In this document: piece after piece, positions 44,640 through 52,416 of the stretch | How the letters are laid out: each line of letters begins with the position of its first letter | How positions within the stretch are numbered: the first letter of the stretch is position 1 | Sequence record: PQ351811 | Length of the DNA: 64,000 nucleotides | Direction: 5' to 3' (one strand) | DNA from: Shigella phage SSG23 | Notes under the pieces: generated by a model | Told to the model about the DNA's origin: nothing | Databases searched by the model: none | Seen by the model: only the letters and a program-made list of their open reading frames with translations | Position numbers and translations under genes: made by a program

Positions 44640-47600
44640 TTAGTCTTCCCAGATAAAGTCTACGGTACGAGTCAGATTATTGGCGATGATTTTAACATTA
44701 CCAACTTTGATCCAATCACGAACCGTCATAGAGTTCATTAAACCACCTTCCGCAACCACTGCCCCGATTTCCTGAGCGGTAGGCTTATTCTGTTTGGTGT
44801 AAATTTCACCCCAGGCGGTCCATTGACCACCAGTACCGGAACGGATATAATGTTTATGAGTACCATCAGGGGACCAAAGCTGGGTAAGCCCGTCCTCGTC
44901 AGTGCCCCATTGCATCAGAGTACCGTTTTTCTTCTCTGGATAAGTATCTTTGATGTTCTTGGTAGTAACGCGCATATTCCAGAAACCGATATTACCGATT
45001 GCCGGAGCGGTTGCCGCGCTAGCTTCATGCTTAACAGAAACAATAGGCGCATTATCCATAATCAGCTTACCGACCATTGTATCGCCAGCATTCTTAACAA
45101 ACTGACGGTTAAGAACTTCGTCAGCGTTTCCTGCGTGTACGATCTGATATTTCTGTCCGGCGATCTCTGTAGTTAACGTTTGATAACCTGCCTTGATGTT
45201 AACACTTCCACCGTGACCGATATTCAACATACCATCAGGGGAACGAGTCATTGCCGGATTAGACTGGTCAACAATGTATAAACCGCCTTGTTTCGCATAC
45301 AGGTTACGACCTGCAATAAAGTCTCGATATGCTGCCGCGTCGCCATTATGTTCCATAGCAAAGGCGTAATGCTCGACAAATCCAGAATCGTTAATCTTAC
45401 CAAAAGCGATAGCATCACTATCAACAACTTGCGCTGTTCCAGTACCACCAACGATAATAGACCATGAGTTTTCCATACCTTCCGATGCGGTTGTGCCGTG
45501 CAGAGTAATTCCGGTGTGACCGTCAACTCCACGCTCACCCAATACCAGATGACCATTACTCGGATCATCAGTCGAGTTCTTAGTCACAAACAGAGTTTCA
45601 AAGGAACCAGATTTTAAGCACTCTAAATCGCCCTTCACGTTAACGTTTTTATTAAACGTGTAATTGCTCTCAATGGTCTGGTCAATGTCTCTACGCGCCC
45701 ATTTAGCGGCCTCTACGTTACCCAATTTCAAACTATTCTGAGCGGTTGCCATCTTAGGTAAGAAATTAGCAAGTGCGTAGTTTAATCCTTTAGGGGTAAC
45801 AGCTATTCCGTCATGCTGGTAATTTCCTAGTTCTTGAGTAGAACCTTGCAGATTATCACCAACAAAACAGTTTTCCTGAGTAGCAACTTTCAAGAAACCA
45901 CGACGCGCTTCGGTTGCTTTCCATGTATCCTCTGTCTGAACAACATATTTGAAGTTCTTCGGAGAAATTGCTACATTGTCCAGTGTACCAGCGACGGTTT
46001 CGGCTTGAGTACCAACTCGGATAATACCTTCTTTAACTTCGGTGGCCTTTTTGCCTTGCAGCTTTTTAGGGGTAATGATCGTGGCGTCATCTTTTCCCGC
46101 ATCGGTAAGCTGAGTAGTAGCAACTTTAGCGACACCTTTTGTATCTTCGGTTGCATCAAGACCGCTGATCATGATACCTTGCCACAAATCACCAGTAAGG
46201 TTAAGCCCCTGAGTCGGATCTACTTTCAAACGCTGTGCATTCTCAAAGAAGGTTTTAATCTTCAATGGGGTAGAAATGCGAGCGTCGTCACGACCTGCGT
46301 CAAATTCCGGCTGAGTTGCAATTTCTGCTAAACCGTGTAGAGTTTCCGTCGCACGGCGAGTATGCAGCTTTTTAGGCGTGATGATATGGTTATCACTCTG
46401 ACCTAAGTTTGTTTCTTCCTGAGTTGCAATTTCAGCGATACCAGTACGCGATTCGGTAGCAGTACGTTTCGTTAGCGTGCGAGTAGTGATCAGCAATGCA
46501 TCTTGCGGGGTTGATTCTGTAGCCCCTTGCACTTCCGCGTCAGTTGCCAGATAGCCAACACCACGGGAAGTTTCGGTCGCCTTGACCTCGTTGATGTTTT
46601 GTGGTGTAACAATTTTAGCATGGTCATTGATGTTATAGATCCCTGTACCAGCTTCGCCACGTCGAGCGGCAGCACGACCGCCTACCTGAACAATTTCAGC
46701 AATACCAGCGAGGTCTTCGGAAGCGCGACGTTCTTCTAATTTCTTAGGAGTAATAGCGCGGGTATCGTCTAAACCTTCATTGGTTTCGTGCTGGGTTGCA
46801 ATTTCCATCACACCACGACGGGCTTCGGTAGCAACACAGTCATTTAACTTTTTAGGTGTAACGATAACATCATCCAGGAAGCTGGAACCAGTATCTTGAT
46901 GCGTTTCCGCCTGAGTAGCAATACGAGCAATACCGCGTCGAGTTTCGTTGGCGGTTTTATTAGCCAGCATTTTTGGCGTTACTGCAACTTCGTCGCTAGG
47001 ATTCTCTTCATGGTTTTTATTCGTTTCATTCTGGGTAGCCAGTGCAATTACACCAACACGCTCTTTGCGAGTCGGATCTACTCGTTCTACGATCGGGTGA
47101 GCGTGTGCTACCAACCAGTGTTTCTTACCATCATCACCTTCTGAATAAGAGAACTCCAGATAAGGTACATAATCATTTGCAGCGTTGAACGACAATTCAG
47201 ACACTTCCTTCCACGTCTCGGTCCCGTTGAATGGGTACTCGCTACGTTTCGGAAACTGAACCATGTTTTTCTGCATAAGGATTTTTGTATCCTCTGCGGC
47301 GGTGATAATACGGCAATTCTGGTTTCCGTGCATATACTGCATAGAAACTTGGATACGATCACCAGGCTCGACGTTGGTCGGTAGCGTCAGAGTAACATCA
47401 TGATCACCAAATACAGCAACATAGCTATTAGGTTGCAAGCGAGTGTCATCGATGATCGGTTTAAGACGAACAGACTGATCACCATCCCACACACGCCATA
47501 AGTTTTCCGGCTTATCAAAGATGAATACACCATGACCGCTACGCTTACCGATAATCTCTTTTAGACCGAACGTGCCGATTGATTGTTCTTCTGCGTGCTC

Positions 47601-48380
47601 ATGGACTTTAACCGTAACGTGGTTGGTTGCGGTTAATCCGTCAAGGTCTGTAGTCTGGATCATGTCGCCATTGTTGGCAAACTTAGGAAGCACTAAGGTA
47701 ATATTACCCAATGAACTACGACGAAATACTTGATCACCATTCTGCATTTGAATAGCATCAATTGCTGGCTGTGCGTACACACCGCGCGGCTCTGTTCCCG
47801 TCTGATAAACGTGCCAACGATTGCGAACAAAGATGAAATAGTTCATTGCATAAGGGGTAGTGCAATGCCATTTTCGGTTATACACATTACCGTTATGATA
47901 GAACTCATGCCCTGAACTCAAGAACGATAATTCGTTAACACCACACTTGCCACCGATATCTTTTACTGTTATAGTGTCTCCCTCTGCTGGTTTATTTGGC
48001 ATAGAGAAAGTCAAGTTTGCAAATTGACCATCTGCTGCGATATAATCACCAGACTTTAAAGGAGTATCACCGGAAGTTGCTGCAACATAGTCCCAACGTG
48101 GGTCCGTGCGCAGTGCTTGCCATTTAGTCGGGTCAAAATCACCTGCTGGCTTTGTGATATCTTCTTTTGCATAATACGGGCGGTTTTGATAGATTGTAGT
48201 TCCGTATTGATCATAACCGCGAGTTGTGTCATACTGAGTAATACCATTATGGTAATTGAAAAATTCAACGTTGACCGCATCGGTGTTGACATTCTTATCA
48301 GCCAATGCTACATTGACGACCTTTTCATTACCAGCGTCAAAGCCAAATGTGGCCTTGAAATGTTGAGAAAAATCTGCCAT
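44640..48380 (-). CDS. 34: long tail fibre proximal subunit gp34
   Basis: 1246 aa with repeated TRRGIARIATQ / ITPKKL motifs as in T4 gp34; preceded by a TATAAATA late promoter. Confidence 0.9.
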   Translation of the reverse strand: MADFSQHFKATFGFDAGNEKVVNVALADKNVNTDAVNVEFFNYHNGITQYDTTRGYDQYGTTIYQNRPYYAKEDITKPAGDFDPTKWQALRTDPRWDYVAATSGDTPLKSGDYIAADGQFANLTFSMPNKPAEGDTITVKDIGGKCGVNELSFLSSGHEFYHNGNVYNRKWHCTTPYAMNYFIFVRNRWHVYQTGTEPRGVYAQPAIDAIQMQNGDQVFRRSSLGNITLVLPKFANNGDMIQTTDLDGLTATNHVTVKVHEHAEEQSIGTFGLKEIIGKRSGHGVFIFDKPENLWRVWDGDQSVRLKPIIDDTRLQPNSYVAVFGDHDVTLTLPTNVEPGDRIQVSMQYMHGNQNCRIITAAEDTKILMQKNMVQFPKRSEYPFNGTETWKEVSELSFNAANDYVPYLEFSYSEGDDGKKHWLVAHAHPIVERVDPTRKERVGVIALATQNETNKNHEENPSDEVAVTPKMLANKTANETRRGIARIATQAETHQDTGSSFLDDVIVTPKKLNDCVATEARRGVMEIATQHETNEGLDDTRAITPKKLEERRASEDLAGIAEIVQVGGRAAARRGEAGTGIYNINDHAKIVTPQNINEVKATETSRGVGYLATDAEVQGATESTPQDALLITTRTLTKRTATESRTGIAEIATQEETNLGQSDNHIITPKKLHTRRATETLHGLAEIATQPEFDAGRDDARISTPLKIKTFFENAQRLKVDPTQGLNLTGDLWQGIMISGLDATEDTKGVAKVATTQLTDAGKDDATIITPKKLQGKKATEVKEGIIRVGTQAETVAGTLDNVAISPKNFKYVVQTEDTWKATEARRGFLKVATQENCFVGDNLQGSTQELGNYQHDGIAVTPKGLNYALANFLPKMATAQNSLKLGNVEAAKWARRDIDQTIESNYTFNKNVNVKGDLECLKSGSFETLFVTKNSTDDPSNGHLVLGERGVDGHTGITLHGTTASEGMENSWSIIVGGTGTAQVVDSDAIAFGKINDSGFVEHYAFAMEHNGDAAAYRDFIAGRNLYAKQGGLYIVDQSNPAMTRSPDGMLNIGHGGSVNIKAGYQTLTTEIAGQKYQIVHAGNADEVLNRQFVKNAGDTMVGKLIMDNAPIVSVKHEASAATAPAIGNIGFWNMRVTTKNIKDTYPEKKNGTLMQWGTDEDGLTQLWSPDGTHKHYIRSGTGGQWTAWGEIYTKQNKPTAQEIGAVVAEGGLMNSMTVRDWIKVGNVKIIANNLTRTVDFIWED

Positions 48381-48408
48381 TATTGGGTCTCCTTTTATAG
48401 TATGTTCA

Positions 48409-48416
48409 TATTTATA
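48409..48416 (-). promoter_or_regulatory. T4-type late promoter (TATAAATA) upstream of gene 34
   Basis: + strand reads TATTTATA; about 30 nt upstream of the gene 34 start on the - strand. Confidence 0.5.
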
Positions 48417-48454
48417 AAATGAGGCTTGATAGAAACAAAAGAGGATGATATACT

Positions 48455-48640
48455 ATGGTTAAAGTTGATTTGTCAGACGGCGCAAAATGGATAGTTGACA
48501 GAATCCCAGATAAGGATTACAATTATTTCCGTGCCGAATTAAACAATGCAATTCTGCGAGTTATGGAGAAATACGGGTATGATCGTGAAGTATCTAACTC
48601 GTTTGGCGAATATGTTGTTGTGAGAGTGGAGAGAACTTAA
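48455..48640 (+). CDS. hypothetical protein
   Basis: 61-aa ORF with GAGGATGA RBS. Confidence 0.4.
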   Translation: MVKVDLSDGAKWIVDRIPDKDYNYFRAELNNAILRVMEKYGYDREVSNSFGEYVVVRVERT

Positions 48641-48642
48641 TT

Positions 48643-49590
48643 ATGACGTATAACCCGTTTACAAAAACTACCGCTACACTTAATGATTTCTTCGATGATC
48701 CAGAAGATAAACTGCCGGAAGGTGTGCATTTGATTGATATGTCGCAGCTTATGATTGCTACTATCTCTCATACATTTAAGCCGGAAGATCCGATTAATGA
48801 AGGTATGATTCGTCATCTTATCCTTGACACCATGCGTTATAATATGACAAAATTCAAAGAGCAATACCCGATTACGGTACTTGCCTTTGACTCTAGCAAA
48901 GGTTACTGGCGACGTGATATCGCACCATATTACAAACGTAACCGCAAGGAAAAGCGAGACGCAGATCCGCGTGATTGGGATATGATCTTTGCGGCGATCA
49001 ATAAGATCACCGAAGAGTTTAAAGAGAACATGCCTTATCACGTTATTAAGGTTGACAAAATTGAAGCAGATGATATAATCGCTGTGTTAACTAAAAAGTT
49101 TTCTGTAGAAGGTCGCCAGGTGCTAATCAACTCCGGCGATGGTGACTACACACAGTTGCACAAATACAAAAACGTGAAACAGTGGGCACCAGTACAGAAA
49201 GCATGGAAGAAGTGCAAATATGGTAGCCCATACAAAGACCTTATGGTAAAATGTGTTAAGGGCGACGCAAAAGACGGTGTAGCCTCTGTCAAATGTCGTA
49301 GTGATTTTATTATCTCTCGACTGGAAGGGGAGCGAGCTAAACCAATTGCAACCAAATGGTTAGAGCAAATTTTCGATGTCGAAGATCCAAAGTCTTTGAT
49401 GACAGAGGAAGAAGCACGACGCTTTGACGAAAACCGCGAACTTATTGATTTTGAATTTATTCCTGATAACATCGAATATGAAATTTTGTTAGCCTGGGAG
49501 AAATCTAAACCAGCACCACGCGGTAAAATTTATAACTATTTTGTAACAAATGCGTTAGTTAAAATGTTGCAGAAAATTGGTGAGTTCTAA
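48643..49590 (+). CDS. rnh: RNase H (5-prime-3-prime exonuclease, FEN family)
   Basis: 315 aa with FEN-type acidic clusters (DMSQL, AFDSSKGYWRRD, EADDIIA, NSGDGDY); adjacent to gene 34 as in T4. Confidence 0.85.
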   Translation: MTYNPFTKTTATLNDFFDDPEDKLPEGVHLIDMSQLMIATISHTFKPEDPINEGMIRHLILDTMRYNMTKFKEQYPITVLAFDSSKGYWRRDIAPYYKRNRKEKRDADPRDWDMIFAAINKITEEFKENMPYHVIKVDKIEADDIIAVLTKKFSVEGRQVLINSGDGDYTQLHKYKNVKQWAPVQKAWKKCKYGSPYKDLMVKCVKGDAKDGVASVKCRSDFIISRLEGERAKPIATKWLEQIFDVEDPKSLMTEEEARRFDENRELIDFEFIPDNIEYEILLAWEKSKPAPRGKIYNYFVTNALVKMLQKIGEF

Positions 49591-49600
49591 GGGTTGACAC

Positions 49601-50197
49601 ATGAAAGAACTTGAATTAAAATACTATGCTCATTCACAGGAAGGTGTAGAAACAATCTGTGATTTGTGGGTGGCAATGTATGACGGGTACAATCTCATAG
49701 ACCGAGATAACATATTAAAACACGAATTTTATTATGATACCGAAGATCATGCACTGCGTCGAAAAGGAATTTATGCTCGACTTGACGTTAACAGATCATT
49801 GATCATGGTCAAAATAGGTGATAGTGAATCTGGACTATTCAACCGAGAAGAAATTACTTTTTCAACAATGGATGATTTCTATCACTATGTTGATAGTCTA
49901 GGCGTAAACTCCGACCTTATCGTCCCTTTACTGCAAGTTATGACATATCGCAAGTCATTGACACTTGACCTTGAGGGTGCTATAGTGGAAATGTGCAAAG
50001 ACACTTTCTATTATTGCAAAGTAGGCGAAGGAATGGGCGACGCTCACTATGAACTTGAGTTCGAGTTAAAATCAGGTGATGAAAAAGCACTTGACATTAT
50101 CCGAGAAATGATGCTAGAATATGTCGGCGATGATTTAAGTCCTAGCGAAATCTCAAAAGCTGAACGTGGTTTTCAATTAATGATTAAAGAGGGTTAA
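49601..50197 (+). CDS. CYTH-like (triphosphate tunnel metalloenzyme) domain protein
   Basis: N-terminal ELELK (ExExK signature) and C-terminal YELEFELK acidic strand; about 198 aa, typical CYTH size. Confidence 0.5.
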   Translation: MKELELKYYAHSQEGVETICDLWVAMYDGYNLIDRDNILKHEFYYDTEDHALRRKGIYARLDVNRSLIMVKIGDSESGLFNREEITFSTMDDFYHYVDSLGVNSDLIVPLLQVMTYRKSLTLDLEGAIVEMCKDTFYYCKVGEGMGDAHYELEFELKSGDEKALDIIREMMLEYVGDDLSPSEISKAERGFQLMIKEG

Positions 50198-50201
50198 TAT
50201 T

Positions 50202-50477
50202 ATGACTGAACAGAAAAAAGAAAAAGTAGTATTTGACGAAGCAGTACACGGAAATACCCTGGCACAACTGATTAAAGAAGCCAGCGATCAGAAAACCATT
50301 CAAGAAGCATACGGCGATAAGATCAAAGAGATCAAACAGCGTGCTAAAGAAGAATTAGGAGTAGATGGTAAAATGTGGGGCATTCTGTTTAAACTGTATC
50401 ACCAGCAACAGCGCGAAACCTTCGAAGCGGAACGCGATGAAGCGGTAGAACTCTATGATCGGGTGTTCAATGCTTAA
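50202..50477 (+). CDS. hypothetical protein at the T4 dsbA position
   Basis: 91-aa ORF between rnh and 33; position and size fit T4 DsbA, but sequence identity could not be confirmed from memory. Confidence 0.4.
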   Translation: MTEQKKEKVVFDEAVHGNTLAQLIKEASDQKTIQEAYGDKIKEIKQRAKEELGVDGKMWGILFKLYHQQQRETFEAERDEAVELYDRVFNA

Positions 50478-50724
50478 TGAACATGCGGTAAAGGCCGCGA
50501 ACAAAACAGCAAACGGTCTTGCAATCGAAAAACTGGTCGTTGAAGAGGGATTGACTTATCTTGAAGCGACAACGCAGTTTGTAGAGGAAAACTCTATCGA
50601 ATATGGTCACTATCAGAAATATATTCCGGTGTCCATTATTGACAAGATCACACAAGAATGTATAGTAAATAGAACGCTCAGGAAGGGAGTGATCGACGAA
50701 CCGACCAACACTCTCGATATTTAA
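50470..50724 (+). CDS. 33: late transcription co-activator gp33
   Basis: IEKLVVEEGLTYLEATTQFVEENSI and C-terminal NTLD match T4 gp33. Confidence 0.8.
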   Translation: MLNEHAVKAANKTANGLAIEKLVVEEGLTYLEATTQFVEENSIEYGHYQKYIPVSIIDKITQECIVNRTLRKGVIDEPTNTLDI

Positions 50725-50733
50725 GGGGTATGT

Positions 50734-51414
50734 ATGATCAGAAACCGTCTTCCTCCAGATCCAGATATGCGAATTAATGCTAAATCTGTGTATATGTTAT
50801 ATTGCATGATGAAAGCTCATATGAACGGGCGTTATGATTGTGTAAAATATAATTGGAGGATGCGGTTATCTGATGCCGCATTCAATAAACGCAGAGATAA
50901 GTATTATTTCGCGAAATTAGCGGAAAAGTACAATCTAAGAGAATTATACTTCCTATTCCTAAGCAATCTGGTAGCTAATACCGATGCATGGGTAGGTGAA
51001 ATCACTGATGTTGACGCATACGGATTTTACATGGAGTATATCGGTAAGATCACTGATGCGGCAACACGATTTGACGATGACATTAAAAGTCTTGTATACT
51101 TCTCCGAGAAACGCGGGGTTACTCTTAAAGAGCTAATTACATACAATCCCGCAACCGAAACTAGCGGTATCTTTAAGCTACTGCAAAATCGGATTATATC
51201 GTTTGAGTCGTTTATGTTGTTAGATAGCTTTCTAAATATAATCGACGAACACGACAAGGTAGCCAAAGACTTGATTTGGCAAACTTATAGTGTTAAAATG
51301 AAGGCGTACAAGAAACTACTTGTTATTGACGCCACAAAAGCAAGAGCATTATTTGTTAAAGTAGTTAAAGAGTGTAAAGAAATATCTCAATTAAAAGCCG
51401 AAACAAATAGTTGA
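50734..51414 (+). CDS. 59: helicase loader gp59
   Basis: KSVYMLYCMMKAHMNGRYDCVKYNWRMRLSDAAFNKRRDKYYF and LSNLVANTDAW match T4 gp59. Confidence 0.9.
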   Translation: MIRNRLPPDPDMRINAKSVYMLYCMMKAHMNGRYDCVKYNWRMRLSDAAFNKRRDKYYFAKLAEKYNLRELYFLFLSNLVANTDAWVGEITDVDAYGFYMEYIGKITDAATRFDDDIKSLVYFSEKRGVTLKELITYNPATETSGIFKLLQNRIISFESFMLLDSFLNIIDEHDKVAKDLIWQTYSVKMKAYKKLLVIDATKARALFVKVVKECKEISQLKAETNS

Positions 51415-51438
51415 CAAGTAAATCTAAATCTGTATAAT
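51411..51438 (+). promoter_or_regulatory. strong sigma70 promoter upstream of gene 32
   Basis: TTGACA (overlaps gene 59 stop), 16 nt, TATAAT. Confidence 0.6.
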
Positions 51439-51468
51439 AGTCTAGTAAATTAATCAAAAGAAGGAATA

Positions 51469-52416
51469 GTGAATATGTTTAAACGCCAAGATTCTTCCAA
51501 ACTGCAAGCTCAACTGGCCGCACTGAAAGGTGGCAACGGTTTCTCTAAAGAAGATCCGAAAGAGTGGAAGATTAAGACTGATGCAGCAGGTAACGGTGAA
51601 GCCCTGATTCGCTTCCTGCCGTCTAAGACAGAAGACGGTCTGCCGATTGTGAAACTGGTAAACCATTCCTTCAAAGTTAATGGAAAATGGTATTGGGAAA
51701 ACTGCTCCAGCACCCACGGTGATTTTGATTCTTGCCCTGTGTGCAAATATATTAACGAAAAAGATTTGTACAATACCGATAAAACCGAATGGCAACTGAT
51801 CAAGCGTAAAGCGTCTTACTACGCAAATATTCTGGTACTGAAAGATCCTCAAGCACCGGAAAACGAAGGCAAGGTATTTAAATTCCGCTTCGGTCAGAAA
51901 ATTTATGATAAGATCGTTGCAATGGTGAACGTGAATACCGATATGGGCGAAGTTCCGGTCGATGTAACTTGTGTGTTCTCCGGTGCTAACTTCCTCCTGA
52001 AAGCTAAGAAGGTTGATAAACACCAGAACTATGATGATTCTCGTTTCATGCAGCAATCACAGCTTCCGAAAATTGAAGACGAAGCATACCAGAAATATCT
52101 GATGGAAAACATGGTTGATCTGGGTGAGATTGTAGCACCTAGCCAGTTTAAACCGTTTGACGAACTGGAAACCAAATTTAAGAAAACTATGGGTGTGTCT
52201 ATGGTAGCGGGTGCTGCGGCTTCCAGTGCTGCGGCGGCGATTAACAGCCAGCTTGATGATTTTGATGCTCAGATGAATGCATTCGATTCTGGTATTACCG
52301 CAGCTAGCACGGCGTCAGATTCTTCCGCTGATGACCTGATGGCATCTCTGGACCTGGGTGGCGGTACTTCCTCCGCTTCTGATCTGGATGACCTGGATTC
52401 TCTGTTAGCGATGTAA
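51469..52416 (+). CDS. 32: single-stranded DNA-binding protein gp32
   Basis: [52 protein letters not shown] match T4 gp32; acidic C-terminal tail. Confidence 0.95.

Follow-up and report, generated by a model that had tools for sequence, protein, structure and literature searches.

A stand-alone CYTH-family gene in the rnh–dsbA slot of Krischvirus phages

What is the gene that separates rnh from dsbA in Shigella phage SSG23, and what might its product do? The window analysed here, a stretch of 64,000 nt from sequence record PQ351811, is 100 % identical to Shigella phage SFHK24 (PQ351812) and belongs to Krischvirus, among the RB49-like Straboviridae. The ORF listing gives a single ATG-initiated ORF, a CYTH/triphosphate tunnel metalloenzyme (TTM) gene, at 49601–50197 on the plus strand. 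It encodes a 198-aa protein with the N terminus MKELELKYY and the sequence YELEFELK at residues 150–157. An earlier note had described a 198-aa ORF with an N-terminal ExExK signature and a C-terminal acidic strand YELEFELK, lying between rnh and gene 33 and absent from T4. The ORF and both of its motifs are present in the sequence, and T4 does lack the gene, since its rnh adjoins dsbA with a gap of only 8 nt. The placement holds on one side, as the gene lies downstream of rnh, but the gene that follows is dsbA and not gene 33.

The CYTH stop codon and the dsbA start are 4 nt apart, and a putative ribosome-binding site overlaps the end of rnh (Table 1). The surrounding genes are those of early replication and dNTP synthesis: rnh, dsbA, 33, 59, 32, frd, td, nrdA and nrdB. 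Two other intervals in the neighbourhood vary amongst relatives. The 61-aa ORF between the divergently transcribed gene 34 and rnh is conserved and corresponds to RB49ORF246c (PHROG 3594); in the metagenomic relative L004 it is replaced by an unrelated 85-aa ORF (23 % identity). The gap between gene 59 and gene 32 (51414–51469) is empty in the window phage, and contains an HNH homing endonuclease in phage Skers (L002, 5302–5898) and the GIY-YIG endonuclease SegG in T4 (L019, 1910–2542). The latter two insertions indicate that this gap is a recurrent landing site for homing endonucleases.

Table 1. Features of the CYTH locus and its surroundings, in window coordinates
Feature	Position	Strand	Basis or remark
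gp34	44640–48380	-	Pfam and PHROGs
61-aa ORF	48455–48640	+	Pfam/PHROGs neighbourhood check
rnh (T4 RNase H/5'-3' exonuclease), upstream neighbour	48643–49590	+	Pfam RNaseH_C, 5_3_exonuc_N
Candidate extended sigma-70-type promoter inside rnh, perfect match to TTGACA-16-TGnTATAAT	49052–49079	+	Consensus scan only
Left conserved anchor (rnh 3' end, intergenic, first CYTH codons)	49510–49629	+	98–100 % identical in seven Krischvirus genomes
Putative Shine–Dalgarno-like AGGG	49590–49593	+	Read from sequence; 7 nt 5' of the CYTH ATG, overlaps the rnh stop codon
ExExK motif, E3-L-E5-L-K7	49607–49621	+	Invariant in every alignment; YgiF E4/E6/K8 (hhalign)
Variable region (putative allele cassette), codons ~10–149	49630–50045	+	Codon-wise and sliding-window identity, Krischvirus genomes
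Y58-A-R60-L-D62, strand beta3	49772–49786	+	hhalign and gap-free count from the YYDTxDxxL motif
Right conserved anchor/recombination boundary, codon ~150 onward	50050–50109	+	98–100 % identical in seven Krischvirus genomes
E151-L-E153-F-E155-L-K157, strand beta8	50051–50071	+	Clade-invariant; E151/E153/E155 equal YgiF E158/E160/E162
Plug helix, S185-K186...R189 and helix 186–195	50153–50185	+	DSSP of model; YgiF S-K191...R194
dsbA (late-transcription dsDNA-binding protein), downstream neighbour	50202–50477	+	Pfam Phage_DsbA
gp33	50455–50724		Pfam and PHROGs
gp59	50734–51414		Pfam and PHROGs
gp32	51469–52416		Pfam and PHROGs

Assignment of the protein to the CYTH/TTM family, also proposed in the earlier note, is fully supported by sequence profiles and by a predicted structure. 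Pfam CYTH (PF01928) matches at 28.6 bits, above its gathering cut-off of 23.2 (E=1.5e-6), and when the phage clade is compared with 14 canonical CYTH proteins in hhalign, the probability is 99.8 % over 186 columns (E=3.6e-30). An AlphaFold2 model, for which a 23-sequence alignment was the input, has a pLDDT of 92.8 and a pTM of 0.86. According to DSSP it contains eight long strands that form an antiparallel beta tunnel, helices between them and a C-terminal helix at residues 186–195; the predicted structure thus has the eight-strand tunnel fold expected of the family, together with a plug helix.

The catalytic residues are also in place. They were mapped by hhalign onto YgiF, the inorganic triphosphatase of Escherichia coli, in native YgiF numbering (PDB chain numbering is native plus two, reflecting two extra N-terminal residues). 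The roles of the YgiF residues are known from co-crystal structures with substrate and metal and from mutagenesis of E6, R56 and E160, as well as of the equivalent residues of AtTTM3 (PMC4641920). E3 and E5 correspond to the metal-2 ligands E4 and E6, and K7 occupies the position of the phosphate-binding Lys. R60 corresponds to the catalytic R56, K71 to the substrate-binding K69, and R82/E84, R117 and E130/D134 to the conserved tunnel residues R81/E83, R126 and E139/D143. On the last strand, E153 is equivalent to E160 (metal 1) and E155 to E162 (metal 2). An SKxERG motif in the C-terminal plug helix, a concept taken here from Vogt et al. (2021; PMC8233210), is common to the phage and cellular CYTH proteins in alignments and hhalign. 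The mapped residues are invariant or nearly so across the phage clade, down to 31 % identity, and R60 is invariant. In YgiF, R56A is inactive; the position of the second Arg (R58) is non-essential in AtTTM3 (PMC4641920). All features of a hydrolase are therefore present, namely ExExK, the catalytic Arg, ExE and a Lys-bearing plug helix.

An apparent loss of the catalytic Arg, with Tyr58 opposite YgiF Arg-56 in phmmer and hmmsearch alignments, was ruled out by hhalign, by a MAFFT consensus and by a gap-free count from the YYDTxDxxL motif. A 2-residue gap had been misplaced in those alignments. In the correct alignment this deletion relative to YgiF sits in the beta3–beta4 hairpin loop and R60 falls on Arg-56, so the catalytic Arg is kept.

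A CYTH/YgiF-like identification has been available since 2003–2006. The RB49 orthologue, RB49ORF244c (AAL87844.1), is 96 % identical and occupies the same rnh–dsbA slot. A 2003 note in the RB49 GenBank record AY343333 calls it 'similar to P45267, P30871, HI1598, ygiF', and Table 3 of Nolan et al. (2006) lists 'RB49ORF244c, CYTH domain, 0.0026' (PMC1524935). The Ec_Makalu records label the orthologue 'inorganic triphosphatase', and those of PHB13, AV108 and KMB43 label it 'adenylate cyclase'; PHROG 14893, to which it belongs and which covers 58 Krischvirus genomes, has no assigned function. Literature searches, including the supplementary tables of Nolan et al. (2006), found no functional or expression study of the gene. 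RB49 lacks both nudE and the bifunctional NUDIX protein that the other T4-like phages have (Nolan et al., 2006; PMC1524935), and the CYTH enzyme might conceivably make up for a missing nucleotide-polyphosphate hydrolase. What is new in the current study is the retention of the slot down to 31 % identity, evolution much faster than that of the neighbouring genes, and an allele cassette of codons ~10–149.

The gene is confined to a single phage lineage. Amongst 50,697 phage records, tblastn found it in 58, all Krischvirus, and a scan of IMG/VR with the clade alignment recovered three contigs out of 2.9 million, all with Krischvirus-like loci; the clade comprises 43 clusters at 90 % identity. An exhaustive phmmer search against 1.84 billion representatives returned 22 matches with E<=1e-3, mostly cellular CYTH or CYTH–CHAD proteins. 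The nearest outgroups are archaeal and bacterial stand-alone CYTH proteins of ~30–33 % identity in chromosomal contexts, which leaves no recent donor in view. Capture from the host in recent times was ruled out, as YgiF is only 22–23 % identical and the nearest outgroups are the archaeal and bacterial proteins just named. In metagenomic relatives at 49, 38 and 31 % identity, the CYTH gene lies directly upstream of dsbA and gp33, and on the longest of these contigs rnh is also found upstream of it. Since the slot is kept in such distant relatives, the gene has long resided in this T4-like lineage and has been passed on vertically.

Elsewhere amongst T4-like phages, Aeh1ORF004c of Aeromonas phage Aeh1 (L022, 2857–3345; 161 aa) gives a sub-threshold CYTH match of 17 bits against the cut-off of 23.2. 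It adjoins gp39, with a MazG-like pyrophosphatase and a dUTPase nearby. Kinship with the Krischvirus protein was ruled out by the sub-threshold Pfam score, the different locus and the lack of an hhalign relationship. This points to a tunnel enzyme having been acquired separately by another T4-like lineage.

The age of the gene is accompanied by marked divergence. In global alignments, the CYTH proteins of the metagenomic relatives are 50, 38 and 34 % identical to that of the window phage, compared with 82, 78 and 70 % for dsbA and 80, 79 and 76 % for gp33 in the same three relatives; the CYTH protein therefore diverges 2.5–3 times faster than dsbA and gp33. Within Krischvirus, where the flanking genes have 95–100 % protein identity, codons 1–149 fall into at least four allele classes: RB49/SFHK24/GEC-3S, Phi1 and JK32/MIZ2, these three classes being ~80 % identical to one another, and Skers (45 %). 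The window copy is an RB49-type allele. In Skers, nucleotide identity in the core (~49630–50045) falls to 45–63 %, and the last 48 aa of the protein are almost unchanged even in this 45 % allele. Synonymous divergence is elevated or saturated in codons 1–149. From these sequence comparisons, codons ~10–149 behave as an exchangeable allele cassette, sharply delimited by a conserved anchor on either side.

Selection on the gene is purifying overall, with dN/dS values of 0.08–0.29 compared with 0–0.11 for its neighbours. A single 30-codon window exceeds 1, codons 61–90 in the comparison of the window phage with Phi1 (dN/dS 1.6, Nd 15.5, Sd 2.5). Positive selection was accordingly rejected in the pairwise and sliding analyses, as this one small window holds too few changes for robustness. 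Positions in the tunnel register are more conserved than outward-facing ones (0.81 versus 0.61, p=6e-5), which indicates that the active site is fixed and the surface varies. A second mosaic patch lies in the 3' part of rnh (49420–49510), with 63–78 % nucleotide identity to the window in RB49, Skers, Phi1 and GEC-3S and 93–100 % in JK32, MIZ2 and G2494. Recombination tracts are thus frequent in this region generally. The evolutionary pattern of the CYTH gene would suit a gene in an arms race. It would suit an accessory gene in a region prone to recombination equally well, given that the 3' part of rnh is mosaic too.

Expression of the gene is probably early, to judge from the promoter motifs around it. 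The sigma-70-type match inside rnh might serve as an early promoter for the CYTH gene, and a motif scan of the plus strand found no TATAAATA late promoter nearby. Sigma-70-like sites on the plus strand number 26, compared with 11.4 ± 3.4 in shuffled sequences (consensus matches). Over the whole window, TTGACA occurs 48 times on the plus strand and 13 times on the minus strand, where base composition predicts ~20 per strand, and it has a local peak of nine copies at 48001–52000. Perfect TTGACA-16-TATAAT matches lie at 49052, 51411 and 52479; the second of these lies upstream of gene 32 and is annotated as an early promoter in RB49. A further promoter-like element, TTGACA-17-TAAAAT (49594–49622), straddles the CYTH start codon within the left anchor and, if active, would start a transcript inside the CYTH ORF, downstream of the ATG. 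On the minus strand, TATAAATA occurs at 48409–48416, just upstream of gene 34; the window has only one other exact T4-type late promoter motif. The position upstream of gene 34 fits a tail-fibre late operon, as expected.

One natural variant bears on whether the gene is needed. In phage vB_EcoM_G2494 (MK327935; L020), a 1 nt deletion in codon 59, equivalent to window position 49775 and not in a homopolymer, splits the gene into ORFs of 66 and 130 aa. The isolate is viable and otherwise intact. The frameshift is either a natural knockout or a sequencing error; unless it is the latter, it suggests that the gene is dispensable in culture.

The analysis establishes the predicted fold, the residue conservation, the synteny and the evolutionary pattern, and the readings that follow on catalytic activity, substrate, timing and biological role are inferences. 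It is rather probable that the protein is a stand-alone YgiF-type tunnel domain without CHAD, acting as a two-metal phosphohydrolase with inorganic triphosphate (PPPi) as its default substrate. Such an enzyme would use Mg2+ or Mn2+, and its tunnel would grip the triphosphate group through K7, R60, K71, R82, R117, K186 and R189. Metal 1 would connect the substrate with E153, and metal 2, on E3, E5 and E155, would activate the water for removal of the terminal phosphate. By analogy with YgiF, the default reaction would be PPPi to PPi and Pi. The gene would be early and accessory, would share a transcript with the replication and dNTP-synthesis genes, and would not be needed in culture. YgiF, the one CYTH–CHAD triphosphatase with known biochemistry, acts specifically on PPPi, with a Km of 270 uM; it hydrolyses thiamine triphosphate (ThTP) slowly and is inactive on ATP, GTP, ITP, PPi and polyP65, and the PPPase activity of extracts is not lowered in a ygiF knockout (PMC3440374). 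PPPi specificity cannot be assumed for the phage enzyme, as Y58 takes the place of a Gly and D62 that of Arg-58.

The same hydrolase chemistry may instead be directed at an organic triphosphate, such as ThTP, an NTP or dNTP, or a 5'-triphosphorylated RNA or oligonucleotide end. This is the less probable reading and a tentative one. Y58 could stack a ring as does W53 of mammalian thiamine triphosphatase, which stacks the thiazole ring (PMC8233210). On strand beta3, YgiF and 15 other cellular relatives have the sequence [GAST]-x-R-x-R in the alignment, and the phage clade has Y58-x-R60-x-D62. The position of Y58 is thus G, A, S or T in 16/16 aligned cellular relatives, and Y58 itself is retained in 22 of the 23 clade members. 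According to Vogt et al. (2021), an aromatic residue occurs here only in ThTPases and plant TTM1/2, and all other clusters have a small one (PMC8233210). K40 and D62 are also clade-specific, and from the strand register we infer that they are opposed across the beta2–beta3 hairpin. Their presence suggests that the tunnel has been remodelled, and with Y58 makes an organic triphosphate a serious alternative. The slow hydrolysis of ThTP by YgiF itself (PMC3440374) and the position of the gene amongst replication and nucleotide-metabolism genes point the same way.

A role in counter-defence or host takeover would be compatible with hydrolysis of either PPPi or an organic triphosphate. The target of the enzyme might be a triphosphate-bearing host molecule of stress or immunity, which it would destroy, or else the PPPi that host dNTP triphosphohydrolases release, which it would clear. 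Such a role is improbable on present evidence. The polymorphic hot spot, with its old allele classes within near-identical flanks, the faster divergence relative to dsbA and gp33, the local dN/dS window of 1.6 and the restriction of this accessory gene to one lineage would all fit such a role, but overall dN/dS is below 0.3 and the mosaicism in rnh may make the polymorphism a regional feature. Linear immune signals that carry a triphosphate are on record, such as p3diT in Clover, as are defence dGTPases; degradation of p3diT would be no help to the phage, because p3diT restrains defence. PADLOC, the models of which cover host defence systems and not phage counter-defence, gave no matches; an NCBIfam scan was likewise without matches, and literature searches found no paper linking CYTH to phage counter-defence. 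The functions offered in the earlier note, to hydrolyse or make nucleotide signals (for example host second messengers used by defence systems) or to act on triphosphorylated RNA ends, are only partly supported. Hydrolysis of some triphosphate is likely from the sequence, but no PADLOC match, literature or defence-related partner gene ties it to defence signals.

Thiamine triphosphate is a starvation signal in E. coli. A more specific proposal, and an equally doubtful one, is a fast-diversifying host-manipulation enzyme in which a tunnel remodelled by the Y58 gate and the K40/D62 pair would take the terminal phosphate off one particular triphosphorylated small molecule in the infected cell. 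That molecule could be ThTP, a 5'-triphosphorylated oligonucleotide immune signal or PPPi from host dNTP triphosphohydrolase defences. If this were true, the cassette would be the trace of an arms race against some host factor able to sense or inhibit the enzyme, and the CYTH fold would gain its first assigned phage function in counter-defence or takeover. Iyer et al. (2021) suggested that the CYTH and MazG triphosphatases scattered in jumbo phages degrade unmodified nucleotides. That rationale does not transfer to Krischvirus, since RB49 DNA is unmodified (PMC4041780), and degradation of canonical NTPs in favour of modified bases is therefore unlikely here.

That the gene is a decaying or functionless remnant, or encodes a non-catalytic binding protein, is very hard to credit: the frameshifted copy in G2494 and the rapid sequence divergence could be read in this way, but all catalytic residues are invariant in members down to 31 % identity, selection is purifying, the gene is intact in 57 of the 58 phage records and synteny is kept in distant relatives.

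Production of a cyclic nucleotide by a CyaB-type (class IV) adenylyl or nucleotidyl cyclase, as the labels of several GenBank records imply, is just as implausible. The class IV enzymes (CyaB, YpAC-IV; PDB 2FJT, 3N0Y) have an HFxxxxExExK motif, a small residue for the first Arg of strand 3, with loss of the gate-keeper Arg, and ExA in place of ExE (Vogt et al., 2021; PMC8233210). The phage protein shows the reverse on all three counts. The HF motif, part of an adenine-stacking extension, is impossible because E3 is the third residue, preceded only by M1-K2; R60 is kept and invariant; and E153-F-E155 on beta8 is also invariant. These motifs rule out an adenylate cyclase identity and contradict the suggestion in the earlier note that a CyaB-type enzyme might make nucleotide signals. 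The 'adenylate cyclase' labels in PHB13, AV108 and KMB43 are thus unsupported, and most such labels on bacterial CYTH proteins are known misannotations (PMC3440374).

The analysis confirms the older annotation and corrects the cyclase label of some GenBank entries. Phage CYTH enzymes seem to be uncharacterized so far, and the finding could gain interest for this reason. An enzyme encoded amongst early replication genes, with swapped surface alleles, would be a tractable system for establishing which triphosphate matters in infection, and the natural frameshift of G2494, together with simple knockouts, offers handles on the infection-relevant triphosphate species. The residual value of the locus lies in the biochemistry of the enzyme, in its ThTPase-like Tyr gate with an Arg-to-Asp swap, and in the allele cassette.

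Amongst known systems, the well-known viral use of the tunnel fold is in the Cet1-like RNA 5'-triphosphatases. The yeast Cet1, mimivirus, vaccinia D1 and baculovirus LEF-4 enzymes have the fold and the two-glutamate metal motif in common with the phage protein, but they are not its closest profile or fold match. Its closest kin is YgiF (PDB 5A60/5A61), despite the 22–23 % identity. YgiF is a CYTH–CHAD protein of 433 aa with a polyphosphate-binding CHAD domain, whereas the phage protein has 198 aa and lacks CHAD; a Pfam scan found no such domain, and the chain ends at residue 198 right after the plug helix. Two remote matches, P0049 and P0062, carry CHAD. Within the tunnel domain, YgiF has Gly two residues before the catalytic Arg where the phage protein has Tyr58, a second Arg (R58) where the phage protein has D62, nearly invariant in the clade, and Leu at the position of the invariant Lys40. 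The phage beta3–beta4 hairpin is 2 residues shorter. The mammalian 25-kDa thiamine triphosphatase (PDB 3BHD, 5A64) is much less similar overall than YgiF. Of its W/Y-x-R-x-R motif, the phage protein has the aromatic residue (Y58) and the first Arg (R60), but Asp62 in place of the second Arg.
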